Assembly (NCBI RefSeq): GCF_001725255.1
Contig: NZ_MEFV01000010.1
Coordinates: 5,171-69,170 of the forward strand
Length of the DNA: 64,000 nucleotides
Reading direction: 5' to 3'
Source of the DNA: Comamonas sp. SCN 67-35
Lineage (GTDB): Bacteria; Pseudomonadota; Gammaproteobacteria; Burkholderiales; Burkholderiaceae_C
The first letter of the stretch is position 1. Every line of letters starts with the position of its first letter. The translations under genes and the position numbers were made by a program. Shown here one piece after another: positions 5,579 through 20,067 of this stretch. The notes below the pieces were generated by a model. It was not told the origin of the DNA and ran no database searches. It was given only the letters and a program-made list of their open reading frames with translations.

Positions 5579-6358
5579 GTGACCTACGAATGCATCATCA
5601 CCCGCGTCGAAGCCGAAAAGGTCGGCGTGATCCAGCTCAACCGCCCCAAGGCGCTCAACGCCCTGAGCGCGCAGCTCATGATCGAGCTGGGCACGGCCCT
5701 CAAGGCCTTCGACGCCGACGAATCCATAGGCTGCATCGTGCTCACCGGCAGCGAAAAAGCCTTTGCCGCCGGTGCCGACATCACCCTGATGGCCAAGTAC
5801 AGCTTTGCCGACGTCTACAAGAACGACTACATCACGCGCGACTGGGAAACCATCCGCACGATTCGCAAGCCCGTGATCGCCGCCGTGAGCGGCTACGCGC
5901 TGGGCGGCGGCTGCGAGCTGGCCATGATGTGCGACTTCATCATCGCCGCCGACAACGCCCGCTTCGGCCAGCCCGAAATCAAGCTCGGCGTGATCCCCGG
6001 CGCCGGCGGCACGCAGCGCCTGCCGCGCGCCGTGGGCAAGGCCAAGGCCATGGACATGGCGCTCACTGCCCGCATGATGGACGCCGTCGAGGCCGAGCGC
6101 GCGGGGCTCGTGAGCCGTATCGTGGCACTGGACAAGCTGATGGAGGAAGCCCTGGCCGCCGCCCTCACCATCAGCGGCTTCTCGCAGATCGCCGTCATGG
6201 CCGCCAAGGAGTCCGTCAACCGCGCCTTCGAGGGCACGCTCTCCGATGGCGTGATGTTCGAGCGGCGCCTGTTCCATTCGCTCTTTGCCACGCAGGATCA
6301 GAAAGAGGGCATGGACGCCTTCGTCAACAAGCGCCCGGCCAAGTTCACCAACCAGTGA
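5579..6358 (+). CDS. Enoyl-CoA hydratase (crotonase family)
   Basis: [38 protein letters not shown] start at 5579 after an AGGAGA RBS. Confidence 0.92.
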
Positions 6359-6414
6359 AAATTTGCCGCCCGCGCCGGGGTTTTACCTGAAATCCGCTAA
6401 AATGCGCGGCTCCC

Positions 6415-6491
6415 GGTGGTATAGCTCAGTTGGTTAGAGCGCAGCATTCATAATGCTGATGTCCCAGGTTCAAGTCCCGGTACCACCACCA
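6415..6491 (+). tRNA. tRNA-Met (CAT), probably elongator
   Basis: Acceptor stem GGTGGTA/TACCACC, D arm AGCTCAGTTGGTTAGAGC, anticodon arm CAGCA-TTCATAA-TGCTG, T arm GGTTCAAGTCC, encoded CCA; 77 nt. Ile2 (lysidine) identity is not formally excluded. Confidence 0.93.
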
Positions 6492-6497
6492 GATCCC

Positions 6498-6527
6498 GAA
6501 AGCCAGCCTTGCGCTGGCTTTCTTTTT
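6498..6527 (+). terminator. Intrinsic terminator after tRNA-Met
   Basis: GAAAGCCAGC-cttgc-GCTGGCTTTC followed by TTTTT. Confidence 0.85.
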
Positions 6528-6576
6528 GCCCGAATTCTTGTATCGTGCGCGCACTGTATCAACGCGGGACGAAAAA

Positions 6577-7380
6577 ATGGGAGACCCACGCGACCGGGCT
6601 GCTTTCGACGGGCATGATCGCCCCTTCGTGCGGGGGCGATGGATAGGGGCTCTGGCACTGGCCGGTGCGCTGGTGGCAGCTCTGGCCGGCTGCGCGCACA
6701 TGGGCGCGGCCGATGCCCGGCCAGACGCCGAGACGGCACCCGAGCTGGTGCCCCTGGCCAGCGTGGCCCCGGGCGTGCGCCAGGACATGCGTTACCACGG
6801 CCGCCACAACTTCATGGGCCGGCCGGTGGCCGGTTACGAGGCCGCGCGCTGCTGGCTCAGCCGCCCGGCGGCACAGTCACTGGAGGCGGTGCAGCGAGAC
6901 GTCGAGCCGCTGGGCCTGACGCTCAAGGTCTTCGACTGCTACCGGCCGCAGCGCGCGGTCGATGACTTCGTGCGCTGGGGCAAGGATCTGCAGGATCAGA
7001 GTACCAAGGCCGAGTACTACCCGCGCGTGCCCAAGCAGGAGCTGTTCCGGCGTGGCTACATCGCCGAGCGCTCGGGACACAGCCGCGCCAGCACGGTGGA
7101 TGTGACGCTGGTGGTGCTCGATGGCCGGCGTGCGCGCCAGGTGTTGACCGGGCCGCTGGCCGACGGCGGGGAGGTGGACATGGGTACGCCGTTCGACCTG
7201 TTCGACGAGCGCTCGCACACCGCCGACACCAGCCTGGCGCCGGACGTGCAGCGCAACCGCCAGTGGTTGCGCGCGCTGATGCAGCGCCACGGCTGGCGCA
7301 ATCTGCCCGAGGAGTGGTGGCACTACACGCTGGAGCCTGAGCCCTACCCGCAGCGGTATTTCGATGTGCCGGTGCATTAG
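6577..7380 (+). CDS. ddpX: D-Ala-D-Ala dipeptidase (VanX/DdpX, M15D), predicted lipoprotein
   Basis: DCYRPQRAV, SGHSRASTVD, EEWWHY Zn-peptidase motifs; lipobox LAGC after a hydrophobic stretch. Start uncertain. Confidence 0.85.
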   Translation: MGDPRDRAAFDGHDRPFVRGRWIGALALAGALVAALAGCAHMGAADARPDAETAPELVPLASVAPGVRQDMRYHGRHNFMGRPVAGYEAARCWLSRPAAQSLEAVQRDVEPLGLTLKVFDCYRPQRAVDDFVRWGKDLQDQSTKAEYYPRVPKQELFRRGYIAERSGHSRASTVDVTLVVLDGRRARQVLTGPLADGGEVDMGTPFDLFDERSHTADTSLAPDVQRNRQWLRALMQRHGWRNLPEEWWHYTLEPEPYPQRYFDVPVH

Positions 7381-7448
7381 GGCAACGCTGAACGAGCGTC
7401 TCGCGCCTCGCGCGAGCCTGTCCAGCGCCGCTGCAGCCGTTGCCGCGT

Positions 7449-8753
7449 TCAGGCAGGCAGCCGCACCATGCCCGCCGCCGCCGTCTGGTGGCTCGCGTCG
7501 TCGATCAGGATGAAGGCGCCGGTGGCGCGCTCGGCGTTGTAGTCGTCCAGCGCCAGCGCGTCGCGCGTGCGGATCTGCACGCGGCCGATGTCGTTGCTTT
7601 GAAGCGGCTCGCTCGATGCCACGGTGCGCAGTTCGCTGATGTCGCGTTTGGCGGTGATGGCCGTGATGCGCGCCTGCGTGAGGCGCGCACCCTGCTTGAG
7701 CCAGTACCAGCGCGCGGGCTGGAGCGCCTGGCGGTCGAGCCAGCACAGGTCGGCCTCGAATTCGCGTGCCACTTGTGGTAAGGCCCCGGGCGAGACCAGC
7801 AGATCGCCGCGCGAGACATCGATCTCGCGGTCAAGCACGAGGGTGATGCTGTCGCCTGCGGCGGCGGCGTCCAGCAGTTCTTCACCGCGCTGCAGCGCAC
7901 GCACGCGCGCCGCCTCGCCGCTGGGAAGAACCTGCACCTCGTCGCCCACGCGCAGCAGGCCGCCCTGCAACTGCCCGGCGTAGCCGCGAAAGGCCTGGGT
8001 GCTGCTGCCTTCATGGCGGATCACCCATTGCACGAAGAAGCGCACCGCATTTTTCGACGCATCGCCCGCGAGCGGCAGCGATTCGAGCAGCGGCAGCAGC
8101 GGCTCGCCCCCGTACCAGGGCATGTGGCCGCTGGGCTGCACCACGTTGTCACCCGTGAGGGCCGAGAGCGGCACGCAGTGGGGCGCGGCGATGGCCAGGC
8201 GCTGGGCCAGCTCGGCGACGCTCGCGCGGATGCGCTCGAACACCGTTTCGCTCCACTGCACCTGATCCATCTTGTTGATGGCGAAGACGATGTGGCGCAG
8301 GCCCAGCAGCCGCGCCAGCGTGGCGTGGCGCTTGGTCTGGGGCAGCAGCTGGCCGTCTCGCGCGCGTGCGGCGTCGATCAGGATCACGGCGGCGTCGGCC
8401 GTCGAGGTGCCGGTGACCATGTTGCGCGTGTACTGCTCGTGGCCGGGCGCGTCGGCGATGATGAACTTGCGCGCGGGCGTGGCGAAGTAGCGGTAGGCCA
8501 CGTCGATGGTGATGCCCTGCTCGCGCTCGGCCTCCAGGCCGTCGGTGAGCAGCGCCAGGTCCAGCGTGTCGTCCGGCGCGCGCGAGTAGCGCGAACCGGC
8601 GATGGCACTGAGCTGATCGGCGTACACGCCCTTGCTGTCGAGCAGCAGGCGGCCGATCAGCGTGGATTTGCCGTCATCGACGGAGCCGGCGGTGACCAGG
8701 CGCAGCACGCCCCTGTGGCGCGCCTCAGGCCAGAGATCGTTGATCGCATTCAT
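7449..8753 (-). CDS. cysN: Sulfate adenylyltransferase subunit 1 (GTPase), no APS-kinase fusion
   Basis: GSVDDGKSTLIG, REQGITIDVAYRYF, DAPGHEQYTRNM, INKMD. Confidence 0.95.
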   Translation of the reverse strand: MNAINDLWPEARHRGVLRLVTAGSVDDGKSTLIGRLLLDSKGVYADQLSAIAGSRYSRAPDDTLDLALLTDGLEAEREQGITIDVAYRYFATPARKFIIADAPGHEQYTRNMVTGTSTADAAVILIDAARARDGQLLPQTKRHATLARLLGLRHIVFAINKMDQVQWSETVFERIRASVAELAQRLAIAAPHCVPLSALTGDNVVQPSGHMPWYGGEPLLPLLESLPLAGDASKNAVRFFVQWVIRHEGSSTQAFRGYAGQLQGGLLRVGDEVQVLPSGEAARVRALQRGEELLDAAAAGDSITLVLDREIDVSRGDLLVSPGALPQVAREFEADLCWLDRQALQPARWYWLKQGARLTQARITAITAKRDISELRTVASSEPLQSNDIGRVQIRTRDALALDDYNAERATGAFILIDDASHQTAAAGMVRLPA

Positions 8754-9667
8754 CAGAAGTACCCCATTTTCTTGCGTCGTTCCATCGATGCCTCGCTGAG
8801 CTGGTCGTCCATGCGCGTGGCGCCGCGCTCGGTGATGGTGGTCACCGCCGTCTCAGCGATGATGTCGGCGGGCGTGGCGGCGCTGGACGGCACCGGGCAG
8901 GTGCACGAGACATCGCCCACGGTGCGAAAGCGCACCTGCAGCTGCTCCACGGTCTCACCCTCGCGCGCGGGGGTGAGTTCGGTAACGGGCGCGAGCAGTC
9001 CCTTGCGGCGCACGACGGGGCGCACGTGGCTGTAATAGAGCGACGGCAGGGCGAGCCGCTCGCGCTCGATGTACTGCCAGATGTCGAGTTCAGTCCAATT
9101 GGAGATCGGGAACACGCGGATGTTTTCGCCCGGGTGCACGCGCGTGTTGTAGAGATTCCAGAGCTCGGGTCGCTGGTTCTTCGGATCCCACTGGCCGAAC
9201 TCGTCGCGGAACGAGCAGATGCGCTCCTTGGCGCGGGCCTTCTCCTCGTCGCGGCGCGCGCCGCCGATGCAGGCGTCGAAGCGGAACTCGGCGATCGCCT
9301 CCAGCAGCGTGGTGGCCTGCGCAGCATTGCGCGAGTCGGTGGCGTGGCGCAGCACCACGGTGCCGCGTGCCATCGAATCTTCCACGCTGCGCACGATGAG
9401 CCGCTCGCCCAGCTCGGCCGCGCGCTGGTCGCGAAACGCGATCACCTCGGGGAAGTTGTGGCCGGTGTCCACGTGCAGCAGCGGAAACGGAAACTTGCCG
9501 GGGCGAAACGCCTTCTCGGCCAGACGCAGCAGCACGCACGAATCCTTGCCGCCGGAAAACAGCAGCACGGGGCGCTCGCACTCGGCAGCAACTTCGCGCA
9601 GGATGTGGATGGCCTCGGATTCCAGCCAGTCCAGGTGGGTGCGGTGCAAGGTGGTGGTGCTCGTCAT
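8753..9667 (-). CDS. cysD: Sulfate adenylyltransferase subunit 2
   Basis: LFSGGKDS, HVDTGHNF, GGARRDEEKARAKER, ends ERRKKMGYF. Start at ATG 9667. Confidence 0.95.
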   Translation of the reverse strand: MTSTTTLHRTHLDWLESEAIHILREVAAECERPVLLFSGGKDSCVLLRLAEKAFRPGKFPFPLLHVDTGHNFPEVIAFRDQRAAELGERLIVRSVEDSMARGTVVLRHATDSRNAAQATTLLEAIAEFRFDACIGGARRDEEKARAKERICSFRDEFGQWDPKNQRPELWNLYNTRVHPGENIRVFPISNWTELDIWQYIERERLALPSLYYSHVRPVVRRKGLLAPVTELTPAREGETVEQLQVRFRTVGDVSCTCPVPSSAATPADIIAETAVTTITERGATRMDDQLSEASMERRKKMGYF

Positions 9668-9684
9668 GGCTTCAGGCAATGGGT

Positions 9685-10590
9685 TCAGGCGGCCGGTGTG
9701 GGGTCGGTGTGTTCGTGGTGGTGGGCATTGACGCTGGTGTGCAGGCCGCACTCGGCGTTGTTCCTCTGCTCCCACCACCAGCGGCCGGCGCGGATGTCCT
9801 CGCCGGGGCGGATCGCGCGCGTGCAGCACTCGCAGCCGATGGAGGGGTAGCCACGGTCGTGCAGCGGGTTGTAGGGAATGCCGAGCGCCCGCACCACGGC
9901 CCAGACCTCGTCGGTGCTCCAGCTCGCGAGCGGGTTGTACTTGTGCAGGCCGAAGGCCTCGTCCCACTGCGTTTCGGGCAGCTCGGCGCGCGTGCTCGAT
10001 TGCTCGCGCCGCTGGCCGGTGATCCAGGCCGAGTGCCCGGCGAGCGCCCGGCGCAGTGGCTCGACCTTGCGGATGTCGCAGCAGAGCTTGCGCAGTTCCA
10101 CGCTCTCATAGAAGGCGTTCAGACCGTGGGTGGCGATGTAGTCCTTCACGGCTTCCGGCTTTGGGTGCATGAGCTGCACGTTGATGCCGTAGCGCTGCTC
10201 GATCACGCCGACCATGTCCAGCGTTTCCTGGTGCAGGCGGCCGGTGTCGAGCATGAACACGCCTGGGAACCTGCCGGACTTGGAAGTCGCCGGCTGCAAA
10301 TCGACCGCAGCGGCCCATTTTTCACCGTCTTTTTGCCCAATAGCTCGGCTATTGGGCTGCAAATTCGGCAAAAACTGATCTCGCTGGGGCCGATTTTCGC
10401 TATCGGCGCTCCAAGTCCGACAGGCTCCCGGGCGTGTGGGCAGCTGCATCAGCGCGTGGATGAGCAGCGTGTCTTCCACGCCCATGGACGAGGCGAGCAG
10501 CGCGTCCGGGTGTTCCTGCGCGATGCCGTCGAGCAGTTGCAGCAGCGCGTTCCAGCGGTCGGCCAGTGGGGTGGTCAAGGGGCTTGCCAT
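9685..10590 (-). CDS. cysH: APS/PAPS reductase (Fe-S APS-reductase type) with a 55-aa in-frame insertion
   Basis: SSMGVED, LDTGRLH, LCCDIRKVEPL, WITGQRREQS, SIGCECCTR, RAGRW, ECGLH. The insertion lies between LPTRP and GVFMLDTG. Confidence 0.9.
   Translation of the reverse strand: MASPLTTPLADRWNALLQLLDGIAQEHPDALLASSMGVEDTLLIHALMQLPTRPGACRTWSADSENRPQRDQFLPNLQPNSRAIGQKDGEKWAAAVDLQPATSKSGRFPGVFMLDTGRLHQETLDMVGVIEQRYGINVQLMHPKPEAVKDYIATHGLNAFYESVELRKLCCDIRKVEPLRRALAGHSAWITGQRREQSSTRAELPETQWDEAFGLHKYNPLASWSTDEVWAVVRALGIPYNPLHDRGYPSIGCECCTRAIRPGEDIRAGRWWWEQRNNAECGLHTSVNAHHHEHTDPTPAA
10265..10429. mobile_element. 165-bp MITE-like palindromic element inserted in frame in cysH
   Basis: 20-bp terminal inverted repeats GGGAACCTGCCGGACTTGGA / TCCAAGTCCGACAGGCTCCC (18/20 match). 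Central hairpin GCCCAATAGC-tcg-GCTATTGGGC (10335-10357). Length is a multiple of 3, and removal restores a canonical CysH spacing. Confidence 0.85.
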
Positions 10591-10601
10591 GGTGTTCCTT
10601 C

Positions 10602-12029
10602 CTAGGCGGCGAGTGCCGCCGCACGCGCCGTTTTCGGCCGTGCGTGTTCGGGCGCGAGCGTTTCGCCGAACCAGGCCAGCGTCTGGCCCAGGCGAGTGAC
10701 CTCACCGACGATGAGCAGCGCGGGCGAGGCAATGGCGTGCACCCTGGCCTGCGCGGCCACGGTGGCGAGCGTGGCGTGCAGCGTGCGCTGGCCAGGGCGC
10801 GAGCCGTTTTCCACCAACGCACAGGGCGTATCAAAGGGCAGGCCATCATGCGTGAGCTGGGCACTCAGCGCCGCGAGGCGCTCCACGCCCATGTAGTACA
10901 CGCGGGTGTGCTGGCCGGGCGCATGGGCGTGCTCGGCGGCTTCTCGTCGGTGCGCGGTGGCGAGCGTGAGCGTGTCGGCCACCGCGCGGTGCGTGAGCGG
11001 AATGCCTGCATACGCGCCGCAGGCGAGCGCCGCCGTGATGCCGGGCACCACCTCGTAGGCGACGCCATGCGCGCGCAGCGCCAGCAGTTCTTCGCCGCCA
11101 CGGCCGTACACCAGCGGGTCGCCGCCCTTGAGGCGCACCACCGTGCGGCCCTGGCTGGCGTGGTCGATCATGAGCGCTTGGATGCGCTGCTGCGTGGCTT
11201 CGTGATCTTCGCCGGGGGTCTTGCCCACGCTGATCTGCAGCGCATCGCGCCGCGCAAGCTGCAGCACCTCGGGGCTCACGAGCCGGTCGTGCAGGATCAC
11301 GTCGGCCTCGTTGAGGGCGCGCAGGCCGCGCAGCGTGAGCAGGCCGGGGTCGCCCGGGCCCGCGCCCACGAGCAGCACCTTGCCTTGCGGCGGCGCTTCG
11401 CCCGTGCGCAGGGCTTCTTCAAGCAGCGCCTCGGCGGCTTCGGGCCGGGCGGCGCGCAGGGCGTCGTGCACCGGGCCGTCGAGCAGCCAGTGGTAGAAGC
11501 GCCGGCGCGCACCCAGCTCGGGGCGTGCGCGCCGGATGGCCGCGCGCTGGCGCCGGGCCAGCGCTGTGAGCCAGCCGATGGAGGGCTCGACCAGCGAATC
11601 GATGCGCTCGCGCAGGCGCCGTGCGATCACGGGCGCCGCGCCGCCGGACGAGATGGCGATGGTGAGGGGCGCGCGATCGACGATGGCGGGCACCTGCGCG
11701 CTGGAGCGCGCGGCGTCGTCCACCACGTTGCACCAGAGCTGGCGTGCGCTCGCGGCCTGCGCCACGGCGGCGTTCAGCGCTTCGTCGTTGGTGGCGGCAA
11801 TCACCAGCCACATGCCCTGCAGCCATTGCGCGTCAAAGGCGCCCAGGTGCAGGCTGATGTGGCCCTGCTCGGCCTGCGCGCTCACGCTGGGGTGCGCGGC
11901 CTTGGCCAGCACGGTGACCTGCGCGCCGGCGCTCAGCAGCAACGCGATCTTGCGCGCGGCGACCAGCCCCGCGCCGACCACGAGCACGCGGCGCCCGTGC
12001 AGGTTCAGAAACAGCGGAAAGTGCTCCAT
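10602..12029 (-). CDS. cysG: Siroheme synthase (multifunctional)
   Basis: [58 protein letters not shown]. Start at ATG 12029. Confidence 0.93.
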
Positions 12030-12042
12030 GACGCGCGGTGCC

Positions 12043-13722
12043 TCAGTATTCGATGACGGGGCGGCGCTTGGGCGGCTCCACCACCTTGGCGCGCGCGATG
12101 AAGTCGCCGAAGTGCTCGCCCGCCGTGCGTTCGCTGGCAAAGCGGCCAAAGAGCTCGTCGAGCGCGGCGAGGATGACGTCTTCGCCGACGTTTTCCTTGT
12201 AGATCGCGTTCAGGCGTTCGCCCAGGTGGTCGGCGCCCAGGCGCAGGTCGTACTTGCCGATGGCGCGGCCCACGAGCGCGATCTCGCCCATGTAGGGGCG
12301 CGAGCACTCCTCCATCAGATCGTGCTTGGCGAGCAGCTCTTCCATCTTCTGCACGATGCGCGGCAGGTAGCGTTCGGATTCGGCCATCGCCAGGCCGCAG
12401 GTGGGCAGCGCCACGCACGAGATGGCGTTCAGGCGCAGGCCGCTGGCGTTCACGTGGTCATCCAGGCCGTATTGCTTGACCAGCGCATCGATCTTCGCGC
12501 GGTCCTTGCTGGCCACCTTGGCGATGATGACGTTCTGGTCGCAGGTCATGCGGAATTCGCCCTGGTGGATGCGGGCGATCGCGCGCAGGCCGCTCTGGCG
12601 CGGGTGGCCATCGACGTCGAGCACACGGCCGCTGGGGATGCGCAGCGTGAGGTTCCACTGCCCGCGCCCGGCTTCCACCCAGCCGAAGCGGTCGCCGTTG
12701 TGCTCGAAGTGGTAGGGCCGCGGCGGCTCGATGATGAAGGGCAGGCGCGATTGCAGCTCGTCGTGGTACCACTGCAGGCCGCGGTCGTCTATGGTGTATT
12801 TGAGGCGCGCGTGCTTGCGCTCGCCCCGGTCGCCGAAGTCGCGCTGCACGGCGATGGCGTGCCAGCAGGTTTCCAGCAGATGCTCCTTGGGCACATAGCC
12901 GATCAGGTCGGCCAGCGCCGGGTAGGTCTTGGGGTCGCCCGCCGTCGCGCCCATGCTGCCGCCGGGGGCGAGGTTGAAGCCCTGCAGCTCGTTCTTCTTG
13001 TCGAAGATCGCGATCAGGCCGAAGTCCTGGGCGAACACGTCGATGTCGTTGTAGGGCGGGATGGCGATGCCGAACTTGAACTTGCGCGGCAGGTAGCTCT
13101 TGCCCAGCAGCGGCTCTTCGTCGTGTGCGCCGTCGCTGGTGCGTTCCTTTTTATCGATCCACAACTCCTGGTAGGCGGTGGTGTGGGGCTTGACGTGATG
13201 CATCAGCTTGAGCGCCCACTCATACGCCTGGGTCTGCTGCGCAGGCACGAGCGGGTTGACCGAGCAGATCACGTTGCGCACGTCGTCGCCGCAGGCGGCG
13301 AGCGTGGAAAGACCCGTCGCGTTGATGCTGCCGATCACGTCGCGCAGCTTTTCCTTCTTGATTTCATGGAACTGGAAGGTCTGGCGCGTGGTGATGCGCA
13401 GCCCCCCCTTGGTGTGCTGTGTGAGCGCGTCCAGGTCCAGCCACTGCTGGGGCGTGAGCACGCCGCCGGGCAGGCGCACGCGCACCATGAAGCCGAAGTC
13501 GGGCTCCAGCTTCTGGCGGCGGCGCTCGTCGCGCACGTCGCGGTTGTCCTGCATGTAGCTGCCGTGGAACTTGAGCAGCTTGGTGTCGGGCTCGCTGATC
13601 GAGCCGGTGGTGCGATCAAGCAGGCCGAGGTCTATGGTGCCGCGCAGAAAGCGGCTCTGCTCCTTGATGTGTTCCAGGGCAGAGAGCTTCTTGTTCTTGG
13701 TGATGGTCAGGGTATCGGTCAT
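12043..13722 (-). CDS. cysI: NADPH-sulfite reductase hemoprotein subunit, with an apparent 12-aa in-frame deletion of the third Cys ligand (possibly inactive)
   Basis: [53 protein letters not shown] are present. The expected ...GCPNGCSRP reads only MEECSRP. Confidence 0.88.
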
Positions 13723-13743
13723 GAAAAGGGGTGCGCGAGTCCT

Positions 13744-13768
13744 CGCGAAGGCGCGGCGCGCCTTCGCG
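13744..13768. other. Perfect 12-bp inverted repeat in the cysJ-cysI spacer
   Basis: CGCGAAGGCGCG-G-CGCGCCTTCGCG; no U-tract. Confidence 0.7.
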
Positions 13769-13794
13769 GAACAGGTTCAAAAAGGGCGTGTCGA

Positions 13795-15636
13795 TCAGTA
13801 CACGTCGCGGGCGTAACGACCTTCAAGCAGCAGGGTTTTCACCCACTGCGCGGCGTCTTCGGGCGTCTTGCCGCCATGCTCTGCGGCGATGTCCGCCAGC
13901 GCGCGTTGCACATCGCCCGCCATGCGTTCGGCGTCGCCGCACACATAAAAATGCGCGCCGCCCTGCAGCCACTGCCAGACTTCGGCCCCGTGCTCGCGCA
14001 GGCGCTGTTGCACGTACACCTTTTCGGCCTGATCGCGTGAGAAGGCCACGTCCAGGTGCGTGAGGGCGCCGTCTTTGGCCGCCTGCAGCCACTCGGTCTG
14101 GTAGAGGAAGTCGCTGTGGCGGTGCGGGTTGCCGAAGAACAGCCAGTTGCGCCCCGTGGCGCCGTCGGCCTGGCGCTGCTGCACGAAGGCGCGAAACGGC
14201 GCCACGCCGGTGCCCGGGCCCACCATGATCACGTCGCGCGCGCTGTCTGCGGGCAGGCGGAAGCGCTCGTTCGCTTCAATGAACACCGGCACCTGCGCGC
14301 CCTCTTCGGAACCGCTCAGGTAGCGACTGCCCGCGCCCCAGCGGGCTTCGCCTTCCTTCTCGAACTGCACCAACGCGACCGTGAGGTGCACTTCTTCATC
14401 CACCTGCGCCTGGCTGCTGGCGATCGAGTACATGCGCGGCGCGAGCGGGCGCAGGGCGGCCACCAGCGCGGCTGCGTCCCAGGCCGCGGGCCAGGCGCGC
14501 AGCAGGTCCACGAGTTGTTCACGGTTCAGCAAGGGCGACAGATCGGCGTTGCGTTCGGGCTGCAGTAGCGCCTTGAGCGCCTCGTGCCCGCCGCGTTCGG
14601 CCAGCGCGGCGACGAAGGGGCGCGTGACCAGCGTGAGTTCGCGCCGGTGCGTGAGCCATTCGGTCAGCGGCAGGGTTTCCTTGCCCTGCGTGACGGGTGT
14701 GCTGCCGTCGAGCTGCAGCAGTTCCAGCACGCGGTGCACCAGCTCGGGCGCTTGTGTAGGCCAGACGCCCAGTGCGTCGCCGGGTTGGTAGTGCAGGCCG
14801 CTGCCCGTGAGCGACAGCTCGATGTGGCGCACGTCTTTTTCGCTGCCGCTGCCGACGATGCGCTGGTTGACCAGCACCTCGGCCAGGAAGGGGCGTTCGC
14901 GCGACCAGGAGGAATGCGCGGGGCGCAGCGTGAGCACCTCGGCACCCGGTGCCGGGGCGGCGGCAGCCTGCTGCGGCGCCAGCAGGCTGCGGGCCTGCTG
15001 CAGCGCGCGGTCGGCCCAGGGCGTGACGACGTAGTCGAGGTCCACATCCGCATCGGCGCGGTCGAGCACGCGTTTCGCACCCAGTTGCGCCAGGCGTTCG
15101 TCGATGCGCCGGCCTATGCCGCAGAAATCCACGTAGCTGGAATCGCCCAGTGCCAGCACGCTGTACGAAAGCTCCGGCAGTTGGGGTGCACGCTTGCCCA
15201 TGAGGAATTCATAGAAGCCGCGCGCATCGTCCGGTGGCTCCACGTCGTCGCCTTCGCTGTGCGTGCTGATCACGAGGTAGAGGAATTTCTCTTTCTTGAG
15301 ATCGCTGGTGCGATAGGCATCGGCGCGTACGATGCGCACCGGCAAGCCTGTGGATTTCACTTCGGCGGCAAGCTTTTCGGCCACGCGCTTGGCGTTGCCG
15401 GTCTGGCTGCCATAGACGATGGTGAGCTGCTGCTGCACCGCCGCGCCGGTGGCGATGGCCACGGGTGTGGCAGCTTGTGGCGCGGCGAGGCGCCCGCGTG
15501 CGGCGGCACCCGCCATGAAGCCCGCGAGCCATTCCAGCGCCGGGCTATCGAGCCCCTGCACCAGGTCGGCGGCGGTTTGCGCTTTCTCGCGCGAGATCGG
15601 CAGGACGTCGGGCAGGACGTCGGCAATCTGTGTCAT
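13795..15636 (-). CDS. cysJ: NADPH-sulfite reductase flavoprotein subunit
   Basis: Flavodoxin YGSQTGNA, FAD-binding PRMYSIASS, GPGTGVAPFRAF, YVCGDA, ends RYARDVY. Start at ATG 15636. Confidence 0.93.
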   Translation of the reverse strand: MTQIADVLPDVLPISREKAQTAADLVQGLDSPALEWLAGFMAGAAARGRLAAPQAATPVAIATGAAVQQQLTIVYGSQTGNAKRVAEKLAAEVKSTGLPVRIVRADAYRTSDLKKEKFLYLVISTHSEGDDVEPPDDARGFYEFLMGKRAPQLPELSYSVLALGDSSYVDFCGIGRRIDERLAQLGAKRVLDRADADVDLDYVVTPWADRALQQARSLLAPQQAAAAPAPGAEVLTLRPAHSSWSRERPFLAEVLVNQRIVGSGSEKDVRHIELSLTGSGLHYQPGDALGVWPTQAPELVHRVLELLQLDGSTPVTQGKETLPLTEWLTHRRELTLVTRPFVAALAERGGHEALKALLQPERNADLSPLLNREQLVDLLRAWPAAWDAAALVAALRPLAPRMYSIASSQAQVDEEVHLTVALVQFEKEGEARWGAGSRYLSGSEEGAQVPVFIEANERFRLPADSARDVIMVGPGTGVAPFRAFVQQRQADGATGRNWLFFGNPHRHSDFLYQTEWLQAAKDGALTHLDVAFSRDQAEKVYVQQRLREHGAEVWQWLQGGAHFYVCGDAERMAGDVQRALADIAAEHGGKTPEDAAQWVKTLLLEGRYARDVY

Positions 15637-15711
15637 GACAACCCTCTCAGATTCAAGCAAACAAGGCCTGCGTGGCAGGCGTTTTCAGCACTGTATTGAT
15701 CGAACGTTTGG

Positions 15712-15737
15712 AAAGGAAGAATTGATTTTTCATAACC
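15712..15737 (-). promoter_or_regulatory. Putative CysB/LysR-type operator upstream of cysJ
   Basis: GGTTATGAAAAATCAATTCTTCCTTT; 16/26 identical to the motif upstream of sbp. Regulator identity is inference. Confidence 0.45.
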
Positions 15738-15833
15738 TAAGCAGTACAGCGCATAAAGAAAATTGCGAGCTGCCGGAGTTCTTCCCGTAAGTGCCAAAGC
15801 CGGATACACGCCTGCACTTGGCGAGGGTCCGCG

Positions 15834-16217
15834 TCATGGCACTGCGGCGCGCAAGATGGGACCGGCCAGCGGGCGGGTCTCATGCAGGGCGTGGTGGGCC
15901 AGCTCATCGGCGTCCAGGTACACCGCCCCGTCCTCCAGCCTGACCTGGAAGCGTGGCGCGCAGCCTTCGTCGGGCGCCTGGGCCTGGCCGTCGCACAGGC
16001 CGATGGTCCAGTTGTGCAGGGGGCAGGCCACGCTCTGGCCGAACACGATGCCCTGGCTCAACGGGCCGCCCTTGTGCGGGCAGCGGTCCAGCAGGGCGAA
16101 TACCTCGTGCGTGGCGGTGCGGAACACGGCCACCTCCAGGCCCTGCGCTCGCGCCACGCGGCGGGCGCCCAGCACGGGGATGTCTTCGAGCTTGCAGATG
16201 TAGGTCCACTGTGTCAT
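15834..16217 (-). CDS. nirD: Nitrite reductase [NAD(P)H] small (Rieske) subunit
   Basis: CPHKGGPLSQG...CPLHNW. Confidence 0.92.
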   Translation of the reverse strand: MTQWTYICKLEDIPVLGARRVARAQGLEVAVFRTATHEVFALLDRCPHKGGPLSQGIVFGQSVACPLHNWTIGLCDGQAQAPDEGCAPRFQVRLEDGAVYLDADELAHHALHETRPLAGPILRAAVP

Positions 16218-16227
16218 TGCTTCACCT

Positions 16228-16280
16228 TTCGTAGCTTGTTGCGCTTGTCAATCAATGGTTTGAGCCACTTTTTGCTTGAA
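16228..16280 (+). repeat. REP-like element copy 2 (antisense to nirBD)
   Basis: TTCGTAGCTTGTTGCGCTTGTCAATCAATGGTTTGAGCCACTTTTTGCTTGAA. Confidence 0.7.
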
Positions 16281-16302
16281 TAATGGAGGGCTGCGCGGGG
16301 CT

Positions 16303-18750
16303 TCAGGCCACGGCAATGGGGACGAACTGGCGCGCATCGACCCGGGCCTTCTCGCCGTCGAACCAGGGGTCAGGCTCGCCTTCAAGCGCTGCCTGCAGCC
16401 GCGCCCACAGGGCCTTGCGGTTTGCGTGGTCTTCGAGCACTTTTGCCTTCACGTAGTCCAGGCCCACGCGCGCAACGTAGTGCACCGTGCGCTCCAGGTA
16501 CCAGCCTTCCTCGCGATACAGTTGCAGGAAGGCGCCGCTGACTTCCAGCACCTCCTCGGCGGTTTTCACCTTGGTGAAGAACTGGGCCACCTCGGTCTTG
16601 GTGCCGCCGTTGCCGGCCACGTAGATTTCCCAGCCCGAGTCCACGCCGATCACGCCCACGTCCTTGATGCCGCTTTCCGCGCAGTTGCGCGGGCAGCCGC
16701 TGACGGCGAGCTTGACCTTGTGCGGCGCGACCATGCGCCACAGGGCGTGTTCCAGGTTGCGGCCCATCTGGGTGCTGTCCTGCGTGCCGAAGCGGCACCA
16801 TTCGCTGCCCACGCAGGTCTTCACGGTGCGCAGGCTTTTGCCGTAGGCATGGCCGCAGGGCATGCCGATGTCGTTCCATACGCCTTGCAGGTCTTCCTTC
16901 TTCACGCCCAGCAGGTCGATGCGCTGGCCGCCCGTGACCTTGACGGTGGGGATCCGGTACTTGTCCACCACGTCGGCAATGCGGCGCAGCTCGGCGGCAT
17001 TGGTTTCGCCGCCCCACATGCGCGGGACGACGGAATAGGTGCCGTCCTTTTGAATGTTGGCGTGGCTGCGCTCGTTGACGGCGCGGCTTTGGGGGTCGTC
17101 CAGCGCCTCCTTGGGCCAGGTGCTGAGGAGGTAGTAGTTGATGGCCGGGCGGCAGCTTGGGCAGCCGTTGGGCGTCTTCCACTCCATGAAGGCAAACACT
17201 TCTTCCTTGGACAGCAGCTTGTGTGTGCGGATGGCGTCGCGCACCGCCTGGTGGCCGTGGTCGGTACAGGCGCACACGGGTTTGGTCCTGGGTGTGGCGG
17301 AATAGTCGCCGCCCACCGTGGCCATCAGGATCTGCTCGACCAGGCCGGTGCAGGAACCGCAACTGGCGCTGGCCTTGGTGTGCTTGCGCACTTCGTCCAG
17401 CGTGAACAGGCCCTTCTCCCGGATGGCCTTGCAGATGGCGCCCTTGGTCACGCCGTTGCAGCCGCAGACCTCGGCATCGTCGGGCATGCTCGTCGCTTTG
17501 TCCTGGCCCGCGTGGCCGCCTTCGCCAATGTTGCTCTCGCCAAACACCAGTCTGTCACGCAGGTCGCTCACGCTGCGGCCTTCGCGCAGCAGCTTGAAGT
17601 ACCAACTGCCATCGACGGTGTTGCCGTACAGGCAGGCGCCCACCAGCTTGTCGTCCTTGAGTACCAGTTTCTTGTAGGTGCCGCTGCCGGGGTCGCTGAG
17701 CAAGATTTCCTCGGTGCCCGCACCTCCCATGAAGTCGCCCGCCGAGAACAGGTCGATGCCTGTCACTTTGAGCTTGGTCGAGGTCTGCGAGCCCAGGTAA
17801 CGGCCGATGCCGAACTCGGCCAGGTGGTTGGCCAGCACCTTGCCTTGTTCGAACAGCGGCGCCACCAGCCCATAGGCCGTGCCCCGATGCGCGGCGCATT
17901 CGCCCACGGCGTAGATGCGCGCATCGGTGGTGGTCTGCAGCGTGTCGTTGACGACGATGCCCCGGTTCACGTGCAGGCGCATGGATTCGGCCAGGGCGGT
18001 GTTGGGGCGTATGCCCACGGCCATCACCACCAGGTCGGCGGGCACTTCGCTGCCGTCTTTGAAACGCACGGCCTGCACTCTGCCGTCGGCGTTGCCCAAC
18101 AGCGCTTGCGTCTGTGCCGACATCAAGAACTGCATGCCGCGTTCTTGCAGCGCTTTCTGCAGCATCTGCCCGGCCACGAGGTCGAGCTGGCGCTCCATCA
18201 GCCATTCGCCGGCGTGCACCACGCTGACCTGCATGCCGCGCTTCATCAGGCCGTTGGCCGCCTCCAGCCCCAGGAGGCCGCCGCCAATGACCACGGCGTG
18301 CCGGTATTGCGCGCTGGCGGCAATCATGGCCTGGGTGTCTGCAATGTCGCGGTAGGCCAGAACACCGTCCAGGTCATTGCCCGGGATGGGCAGCATGAAG
18401 GGCTTGGAGCCGGTGGCCAGAATCAGCCGGTCGTAGGGCGCATTGATGGTCTGGCCATCAGCGCCCAAGGCGTGCACGGTGCGCCGCGCGCGGTTCACCT
18501 CGGTCACGGTGCAGCCGGCGTGCAGGGTGATGCCGTGCTCCTGGTACCAGGCCCAGTCGTTGAGCACGATGTGCTCGAGGGTTTGCTCGCCCGCCAGCAC
18601 CGGGGAGAGCAGGATGCGGTTGTAGTTGGGGTGCGGCTCGGCGCCGAAGACGGTGATGTCGTAGAGGTCGGGGGCGAGCTTGAGCAGCTCTTCAAGCGTA
18701 CGCACCCCGGCCATGCCGTTGCCCACCAGAACCAGTTGGGATCGTTTCAT
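16303..18750 (-). CDS. nirB: Assimilatory nitrite reductase [NAD(P)H] large subunit
   Basis: VGNGMAG, IGGGLLGLEAA, two BFD-like Cys clusters, CVGSEWC and SGCPRNC siroheme/4Fe-4S ligands intact. Start at ATG 18750. Confidence 0.95.
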   Translation of the reverse strand: MKRSQLVLVGNGMAGVRTLEELLKLAPDLYDITVFGAEPHPNYNRILLSPVLAGEQTLEHIVLNDWAWYQEHGITLHAGCTVTEVNRARRTVHALGADGQTINAPYDRLILATGSKPFMLPIPGNDLDGVLAYRDIADTQAMIAASAQYRHAVVIGGGLLGLEAANGLMKRGMQVSVVHAGEWLMERQLDLVAGQMLQKALQERGMQFLMSAQTQALLGNADGRVQAVRFKDGSEVPADLVVMAVGIRPNTALAESMRLHVNRGIVVNDTLQTTTDARIYAVGECAAHRGTAYGLVAPLFEQGKVLANHLAEFGIGRYLGSQTSTKLKVTGIDLFSAGDFMGGAGTEEILLSDPGSGTYKKLVLKDDKLVGACLYGNTVDGSWYFKLLREGRSVSDLRDRLVFGESNIGEGGHAGQDKATSMPDDAEVCGCNGVTKGAICKAIREKGLFTLDEVRKHTKASASCGSCTGLVEQILMATVGGDYSATPRTKPVCACTDHGHQAVRDAIRTHKLLSKEEVFAFMEWKTPNGCPSCRPAINYYLLSTWPKEALDDPQSRAVNERSHANIQKDGTYSVVPRMWGGETNAAELRRIADVVDKYRIPTVKVTGGQRIDLLGVKKEDLQGVWNDIGMPCGHAYGKSLRTVKTCVGSEWCRFGTQDSTQMGRNLEHALWRMVAPHKVKLAVSGCPRNCAESGIKDVGVIGVDSGWEIYVAGNGGTKTEVAQFFTKVKTAEEVLEVSGAFLQLYREEGWYLERTVHYVARVGLDYVKAKVLEDHANRKALWARLQAALEGEPDPWFDGEKARVDARQFVPIAVA

Positions 18751-18785
18751 GGTTGCCCTTTTGCAGTATTCCTGCGGCAGGCTCA

Positions 18786-18801
18786 TGCAATGACCATGCC
18801 A
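18786..18801 (-). promoter_or_regulatory. Sigma-54 (-24/-12) promoter for nirBD
   Basis: Minus strand TGGCAT-GGTCA-TTGCA, matching TGGCAC-N5-TTGCW, 35 bp upstream of the nirB ATG. Confidence 0.75.
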
Positions 18802-18988
18802 GGGCGGTTGTGGCCTTGAATACGGTTGAAATGACGCTGTTGCCGTGTGTGGCGGTGCGGATTTGGTGCAGGCTGCAGGCCCACGCACCAATCATGGGAG
18901 CGTGGGGGTGCGAAAAACCGTGTCTGCCGATGGGCAGGCGATGGCCGGGTGAATCATCAGGGGGATGGATGGCTGTGAGCGCTTTTCA

Positions 18989-20067
<1,079 letters not shown>

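Follow-up and report, generated by a model that had tools for sequence, protein, structure and literature searches.

The window, by which we mean the whole 64,000-nt stretch of Comamonas sp. SCN 67-35 DNA analyzed here, contains a cys operon on the minus strand, and nirBD lies beside it (Table 1). An intact cysJ is located immediately upstream of cysI and an intact cysG immediately downstream, the former for the flavoprotein partner and the latter for the siroheme supply of the hemoprotein subunit. The CysI product has a NIR_SIR domain (PF01077, 1e-31) and two stretches of NIR_SIR_ferr (PF03460), as in the two-repeat SNiRR fold. In its domain content, cysJ partner and cysG neighbor it resembles E. 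coli CysI (SiRHP; 1AOP, 6C3M), and the CX5C pair and the bridging cysteine are also common to both. Unlike that of E. coli, the SCN 67-35 operon has a CysH of the Fe-S (APS) type and is nested beside nirBD, and its CysI is without the 12 residues equivalent to HIVMRVTGCPNG, the ligand C479 included.

Table 1. Genes and sequence features of the cys operon and the adjoining nirBD genes, in window coordinates
Feature	Position	Strand	Remarks
cysN, sulfate adenylyltransferase subunit	7449-8753	minus	
cysD, sulfate adenylyltransferase subunit	8753-9667	minus	
cysH, APS/PAPS reductase family	9685-10590	minus	301 aa; in-frame insertion of ~165 bp at ~10264-10427
cysG, siroheme synthase	10602-12029	minus	475 aa; starts 13 nt past the cysI stop codon
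cysI, sulfite reductase hemoprotein subunit	12043-13722	minus	559 aa here, 571 aa elsewhere; from ORF, alignment, domains and profile score
Kept Cys473	12304-12306	minus	corresponds to E. coli C483; the equivalent of its partner C479 is deleted
Deletion junction	12306/12307	minus	36 bp (12 codons, PIHFRMSGCPNG) gone; all relatives have them; 1-bp (G) microhomology
Kept first cysteine pair, C436-VALPT-C442	12397-12417	minus	corresponds to E. coli C434 and C440
cysJ, flavoprotein subunit	13795-15636	minus	intact; flavodoxin, FAD and NAD domains; 613 aa in the gene call of the identical contig
nirD	15834-16217	minus	
nirB	16303-18786	minus	only other NIR_SIR-domain gene of the genome

In E. coli SiRHP, four cysteines hold the [4Fe-4S] cluster and one of them, C483, bridges the cluster to the siroheme iron, as seen in the 1AOP structure. 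Beside the solved structures, the assignment of the cluster ligands reportedly comes from Crane, Siegel and Getzoff in 1995. Because the PDB chains count the initiator methionine, the cysteines in 6C3M and 1AOP are the classical C434, C440, C479 and C483. In the HMMER alignment with these chains, residues 11-550 of the 559-aa CysI matched with 507 bits (E = 6e-151), and the alignment contained a single 12-residue gap, opposite 'hivmrvtgcpng'. The missing peptide, PIHFRMSGCPNG, pairs with E. coli HIVMRVTGCPNG, which includes the cluster ligand Cys479. Only three of the four cysteines of the CX5C...CX3C arrangement, C436, C442 and C473, are found in the protein, with a spacing of 31 residues from C442 to C473; the interval 12304-12417 of the window spans exactly codon 473 to codon 436. 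In the nucleotide alignment with eight congeneric species, the gap is one clean 36-bp block, CCCATCCACTTTCGCATGTCCGGCTGCCCCAACGGG, between ...GGAGGAG and TGCTCG..., and in a BLAST comparison with an intact copy from the same clone the junction fell at 12306/12307 with a 1-base ambiguity. The eight congeners read ...EEPIHFRMSGCPNGCSRPY... where SCN 67-35 reads ...EECSRPY.... The 12-codon in-frame gap that the sequence-only reading had proposed was thus recovered by the ORF, by HMMER against E. coli SiRHP, by the DNA alignment and by BLAST, and the alignment with 6C3M and 1AOP confirms for the assembled sequence that the C479-equivalent ligand is lost.

The missing segment is present in the close relatives of this gene. 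In a whole-genome search of 41 relatives, cysI orthologs were found in 8 of the 9 other species of the genus with 84-94% identity, each match being at least 36 bases longer than the SCN 67-35 cysI, and all eight of these 'Comamonas badia'-group species carry the 36 bp. The motif CX5C-X38-CX3C, with an invariant span of 50 residues, is shared by 141 of 144 proteins, which comprise the 120 best database hits and members of the cluster; the three exceptions are the 559-aa CysI itself, a truncated fragment and a protein on a 3.3-kb contig in which Arg replaces the last Cys. In an alignment of 51 sequences reaching down to 57% identity, the lost positions R477, S479, G480, C481 and N483 are invariant, and I474, P482 and G484 are nearly invariant. 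The 90%-identity cluster of the 559-aa CysI has 45 members, named Comamonas badia, Comamonas sp. NLF-1-9, SCN 65-56 and similar, and among the 15 members listed the SCN 67-35 protein is the sole one of 559 aa. A three-cysteine variant shared by a family of homologs, which had been named earlier as an alternative, is therefore not borne out: the allele is a singleton, and the congeners and conspecific contigs are intact.

As for the contig with Arg at the last Cys position, its protein (P0113, from a JGI contig) is a relative of 58% identity and reads GCPNGRSRPY, with Arg in place of the bridging cysteine. On this single short contig, the Arg may stem from a sequencing error or mark a further null allele of natural origin.

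Intact copies of the gene also exist within the same clone. A 571-aa protein (P0122), identical to the 559-aa CysI outside the 12 residues, is present in 59 blocks of public assemblies, whereas none of the other contigs in the public-assembly index encodes the 559-aa product. The ENA metagenome contig ERZ27263093 k141_73859 matches the window at 6043-19722 and 20325-62100, in total 55.5 kb, with zero mismatches, and the sole indel over this length is the 36 bp; cysJ, cysG, cysH, cysD, cysN and nirBD are base-for-base the same in the two. Another contig, ERZ3601406 NODE_769, is identical to the window over 14.6 kb. ERZ28594335 scaffold_564, from a different strain, has an intact cysI and matches 5.1 kb of the cys operon without a difference; further along, its identity is 99.24% over 14 kb, after which the gene content diverges. 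This pattern suggests a mosaic or recombined region. In summary of these comparisons, the intact allele (P0122; ERZ27263093 k141_73859 and ERZ28594335 scaffold_564) encodes a protein 100% the same outside the gap, has flanking DNA 100% the same over 55.5 kb and carries the 36 bp encoding PIHFRMSGCPNG that the SCN 67-35 allele is without. A 30-mer across the junction gave no match in the genome collection or in the JGI metagenome contigs, where the intact form occurs in only two contigs; this absence is weak evidence. We also observed that the same clone, without any SNP over 55.5 kb, recurs in independent metagenome assemblies.

The deletion is the only known difference between the SCN 67-35 assembly and other copies of the same clone; therefore, the allele is either extremely recent or not real. 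Judged from these sequences, it appears private to the SCN 67-35 assembly and would be very young or an error, not the mark of a three-cysteine enzyme family. Between the two, we lean toward a genuine event, in which the one assimilatory sulfite reductase hemoprotein gene of the organism would have lost 36 bp in frame very recently and in this strain alone. The other reading, which we regard as possible but less probable, is that the assembly or its consensus is at fault, or that the assembler followed a minority variant path, with the real or predominant cysI being the intact 571-aa form. The allele indeed rests on one assembly, the index has the 559-aa product on no further contig, the junction 30-mer is absent from the JGI contigs and the genome collection, and the other assemblies of the clone are intact with otherwise no difference over 55.5 kb. 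A local assembly or consensus error, too, would be expected to show up as a lone private difference in an otherwise identical clone.

The features of the break argue against an artefact. The microhomology at the break is 1 bp (G), and no direct repeat is located there, the longest nearby direct repeats, of 7-11 nt, lying away from the junction. There is no hairpin at the deletion site (z = 0.08). In addition, junction k-mers of at least 13 nt occur only once in the genome, and the assembly contains none of the 16-mers of the lost 36 bp at any other place. Because the junction k-mers are unique, a k-mer graph assembler would need reads containing the junction. Over 55 kb, the assembly otherwise agrees with independent assemblies in every base, which speaks against a noisy long-read consensus. 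The 1-bp junction homology and the uniqueness of the junction k-mers make an artefact less likely, and we favor the view that the allele is probably real in at least part of the sequenced DNA. Such an allele would have originated by non-homologous deletion, the microhomology being only 1 bp, and neither a repeat nor a hairpin accounts for it. We noticed that the new junction (GATGGAGGAG followed by TGCTCGC) resembles an 18-mer, GATGGAAGAGCTGCTCGC, located 30 nt upstream (window 12307-12345; L023 7377-7394 versus 7407-7416 plus 7453-7459). Slippage from this 18-mer offers no simple path to the deletion, and we take the resemblance as a coincidence.

The second unusual feature of the operon is the in-frame insertion in cysH (window 10264-10427, ~165 bp), which adds 55 aa. 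Neither the cysH of the nine other species in the genus nor that of a metagenome contig with 91% identity contains it. In the SCN 67-35 genome the insertion is single-copy, and its peptide matches many places in two congeners (G004 and G005); because of these many matches, it looks like a MITE-type element. The insertion-bearing cysH allele is present in 77 blocks of public assemblies, and both listed places adjoin a 571-aa cysI. The cysH insertion is an older event, independent of the cysI deletion.

Together, the two lesions had been read earlier as a possible sign of relaxed selection on sulfate assimilation, such that the cysI deletion and the cysH insertion would be two steps in losing the pathway. 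Two unusual in-frame lesions in one operon, and a genome with sulfur routes that bypass sulfite reduction, would fit such a decay, but we find it improbable. The deletion is without any accompanying substitution, and its flanks are the same as in contigs with an intact cysI; since 55.5 kb including cysJ, cysG, cysH, cysD, cysN and nirBD are identical to such a contig, there has been no decay after the deletion. The dN/dS of cysI against eight species is 0.16-0.27, a between-species value, which is the only kind computable with zero substitutions since the deletion, and it does not support relaxed selection. The cysH insertion allele, for its part, is open in frame and widespread beside a 571-aa cysI, as described above, and a sulfite reductase is kept in all ten species of the genus searched. 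The earlier suggestion of relaxed selection is therefore not upheld.

One of the congeners stands apart in the type of its enzyme. G005 has no CysJI-type enzyme; at C2:108387-110889 it carries instead an ORF of 616 aa that PF01077 matches twice (8.8e-39 for the better match), and the cysH that comes after it shows only 56% identity. From the 616-aa type and CysJI, it follows that the genus has two different sulfite reductase systems.

If the deletion is translated as assembled, it would take out the beta-strand and loop bearing the third [4Fe-4S] cysteine (E. coli C479), and the helix preceding the lost strand would be joined straight to the bridging cysteine (E. coli C483). Consequently, the siroheme-[4Fe-4S] active site should fail to assemble. 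From the conservation of the segment and the E. coli structure, the SCN 67-35 CysI is most likely a null allele. AlphaFold models of the two forms, both built from the same alignment, differ in this block. In the intact protein, it contains a strand at 475-479 with a pLDDT of 86, and in the deleted protein it becomes a coil at 467-480 with a pLDDT of 56, falling below 50 at residues 476-478. The predicted loss of the strand is weak evidence and is consistent with a null allele. A literature search for cysteine-ligand mutants of SiRHP gave nothing useful. Because the deletion is in frame, translation should end at the normal stop, 13 nt before cysG, and cysG, cysH, cysD and cysN would remain untouched.

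Two further readings would give the allele a function or an advantage. It is very improbable that the protein is a working three-cysteine siroheme enzyme with a non-cysteine fourth ligand, or that the deletion is a positively selected, non-polar knockout sparing cysG-cysHDN in a sulfide- or thiosulfate-rich habitat. Also very improbable is a working three-cysteine sulfite reductase whose cluster is completed by a non-cysteine ligand, or a protein with another role, e.g., as a CysJ partner. In favor of such a protein are the uninterrupted in-frame ORF, the retention of the bridging cysteine and of the CX5C pair, and an overall fold that is still predicted (pTM 0.83). Against it, no relative shares the architecture, the four-cysteine span being fixed in 141 of the 144 proteins; the deletion also costs the protein a core strand, together with R, S, G and N residues that are invariant; and the zero divergence from intact copies gives no sign that the allele was ever under selection.

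The consequences of a null allele, the reading that we prefer, depend on the other sulfur genes of the organism. Searching the whole genome with CysI and with PF01077 brought up cysI and nirB only, so that there is no second assimilatory sulfite reductase as a backup. If the allele is null, the cell would no longer be able to grow with sulfate, sulfite or sulfonates as its sulfur source, and CysM, CysK and the O-acetylhomoserine sulfhydrylases could still let it make cysteine and methionine from thiosulfate or sulfide. The genome contains a CysM above its cut-off, a second CysK-like gene, three O-acetylhomoserine/O-acetylserine sulfhydrylases and SoxB. In E. coli, a delta-cysI strain still makes cysteine from thiosulfate and keeps ~50% of its cysteine yield (PMC3528435). 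The phenotype to be expected is the same as that of the classical cysI null mutants of E. coli and Salmonella, which do not grow on sulfate or sulfite and obtain cysteine from thiosulfate via CysM, the route that is also present in SCN 67-35. Unlike the classical mutations, the allele of this Comamonadaceae strain is natural, in frame and non-polar. By analogy, a strain in which the allele is real and null would survive where thiosulfate, sulfide or organic sulfur is available.

In profile searches, the lesion leaves little trace. On the NCBIfam equivalog NF010029, the 559-aa CysI scores 691 bits against a cut-off of 457, and the intact allele scores 739 bits, only 48 bits higher. On TIGR02041, the deleted and intact alleles score 687 and 733, respectively, both under the cut-off of 756.55. 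Because 691 bits is above the 457-bit cut-off, an annotation pipeline would name the deleted CysI as a normal one, just as the sequence-only reading had anticipated in stating that automated annotation would miss the lesion. The genome, the representative of its 'Comamonas badia'-group species, would thus be scored as sulfate-assimilating, while the printed allele probably encodes a dead enzyme. Other assemblies of the same strain have a good cysI, and metabolic reconstructions from the SCN 67-35 assembly could err either way. What we describe is a well-known enzyme with a private 12-codon deletion; a fresh loss of function is most likely, an assembly error is possible, and we see in it neither a new type of enzyme nor evidence of pathway decay. 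It serves mainly as an annotation caveat, an example of an active-site indel invisible to ORF-level quality control, and raises no new biological question.

We also noticed another in-frame indel polymorphism in the cys operon. A JGI conspecific contig, whose cysI is 99.8% identical, contains a 12-bp tandem duplication at L024 198-209 (about window position 12005), where CAGAAACAGCGG occurs twice. The duplication adds four residues near the N-terminus of CysG.
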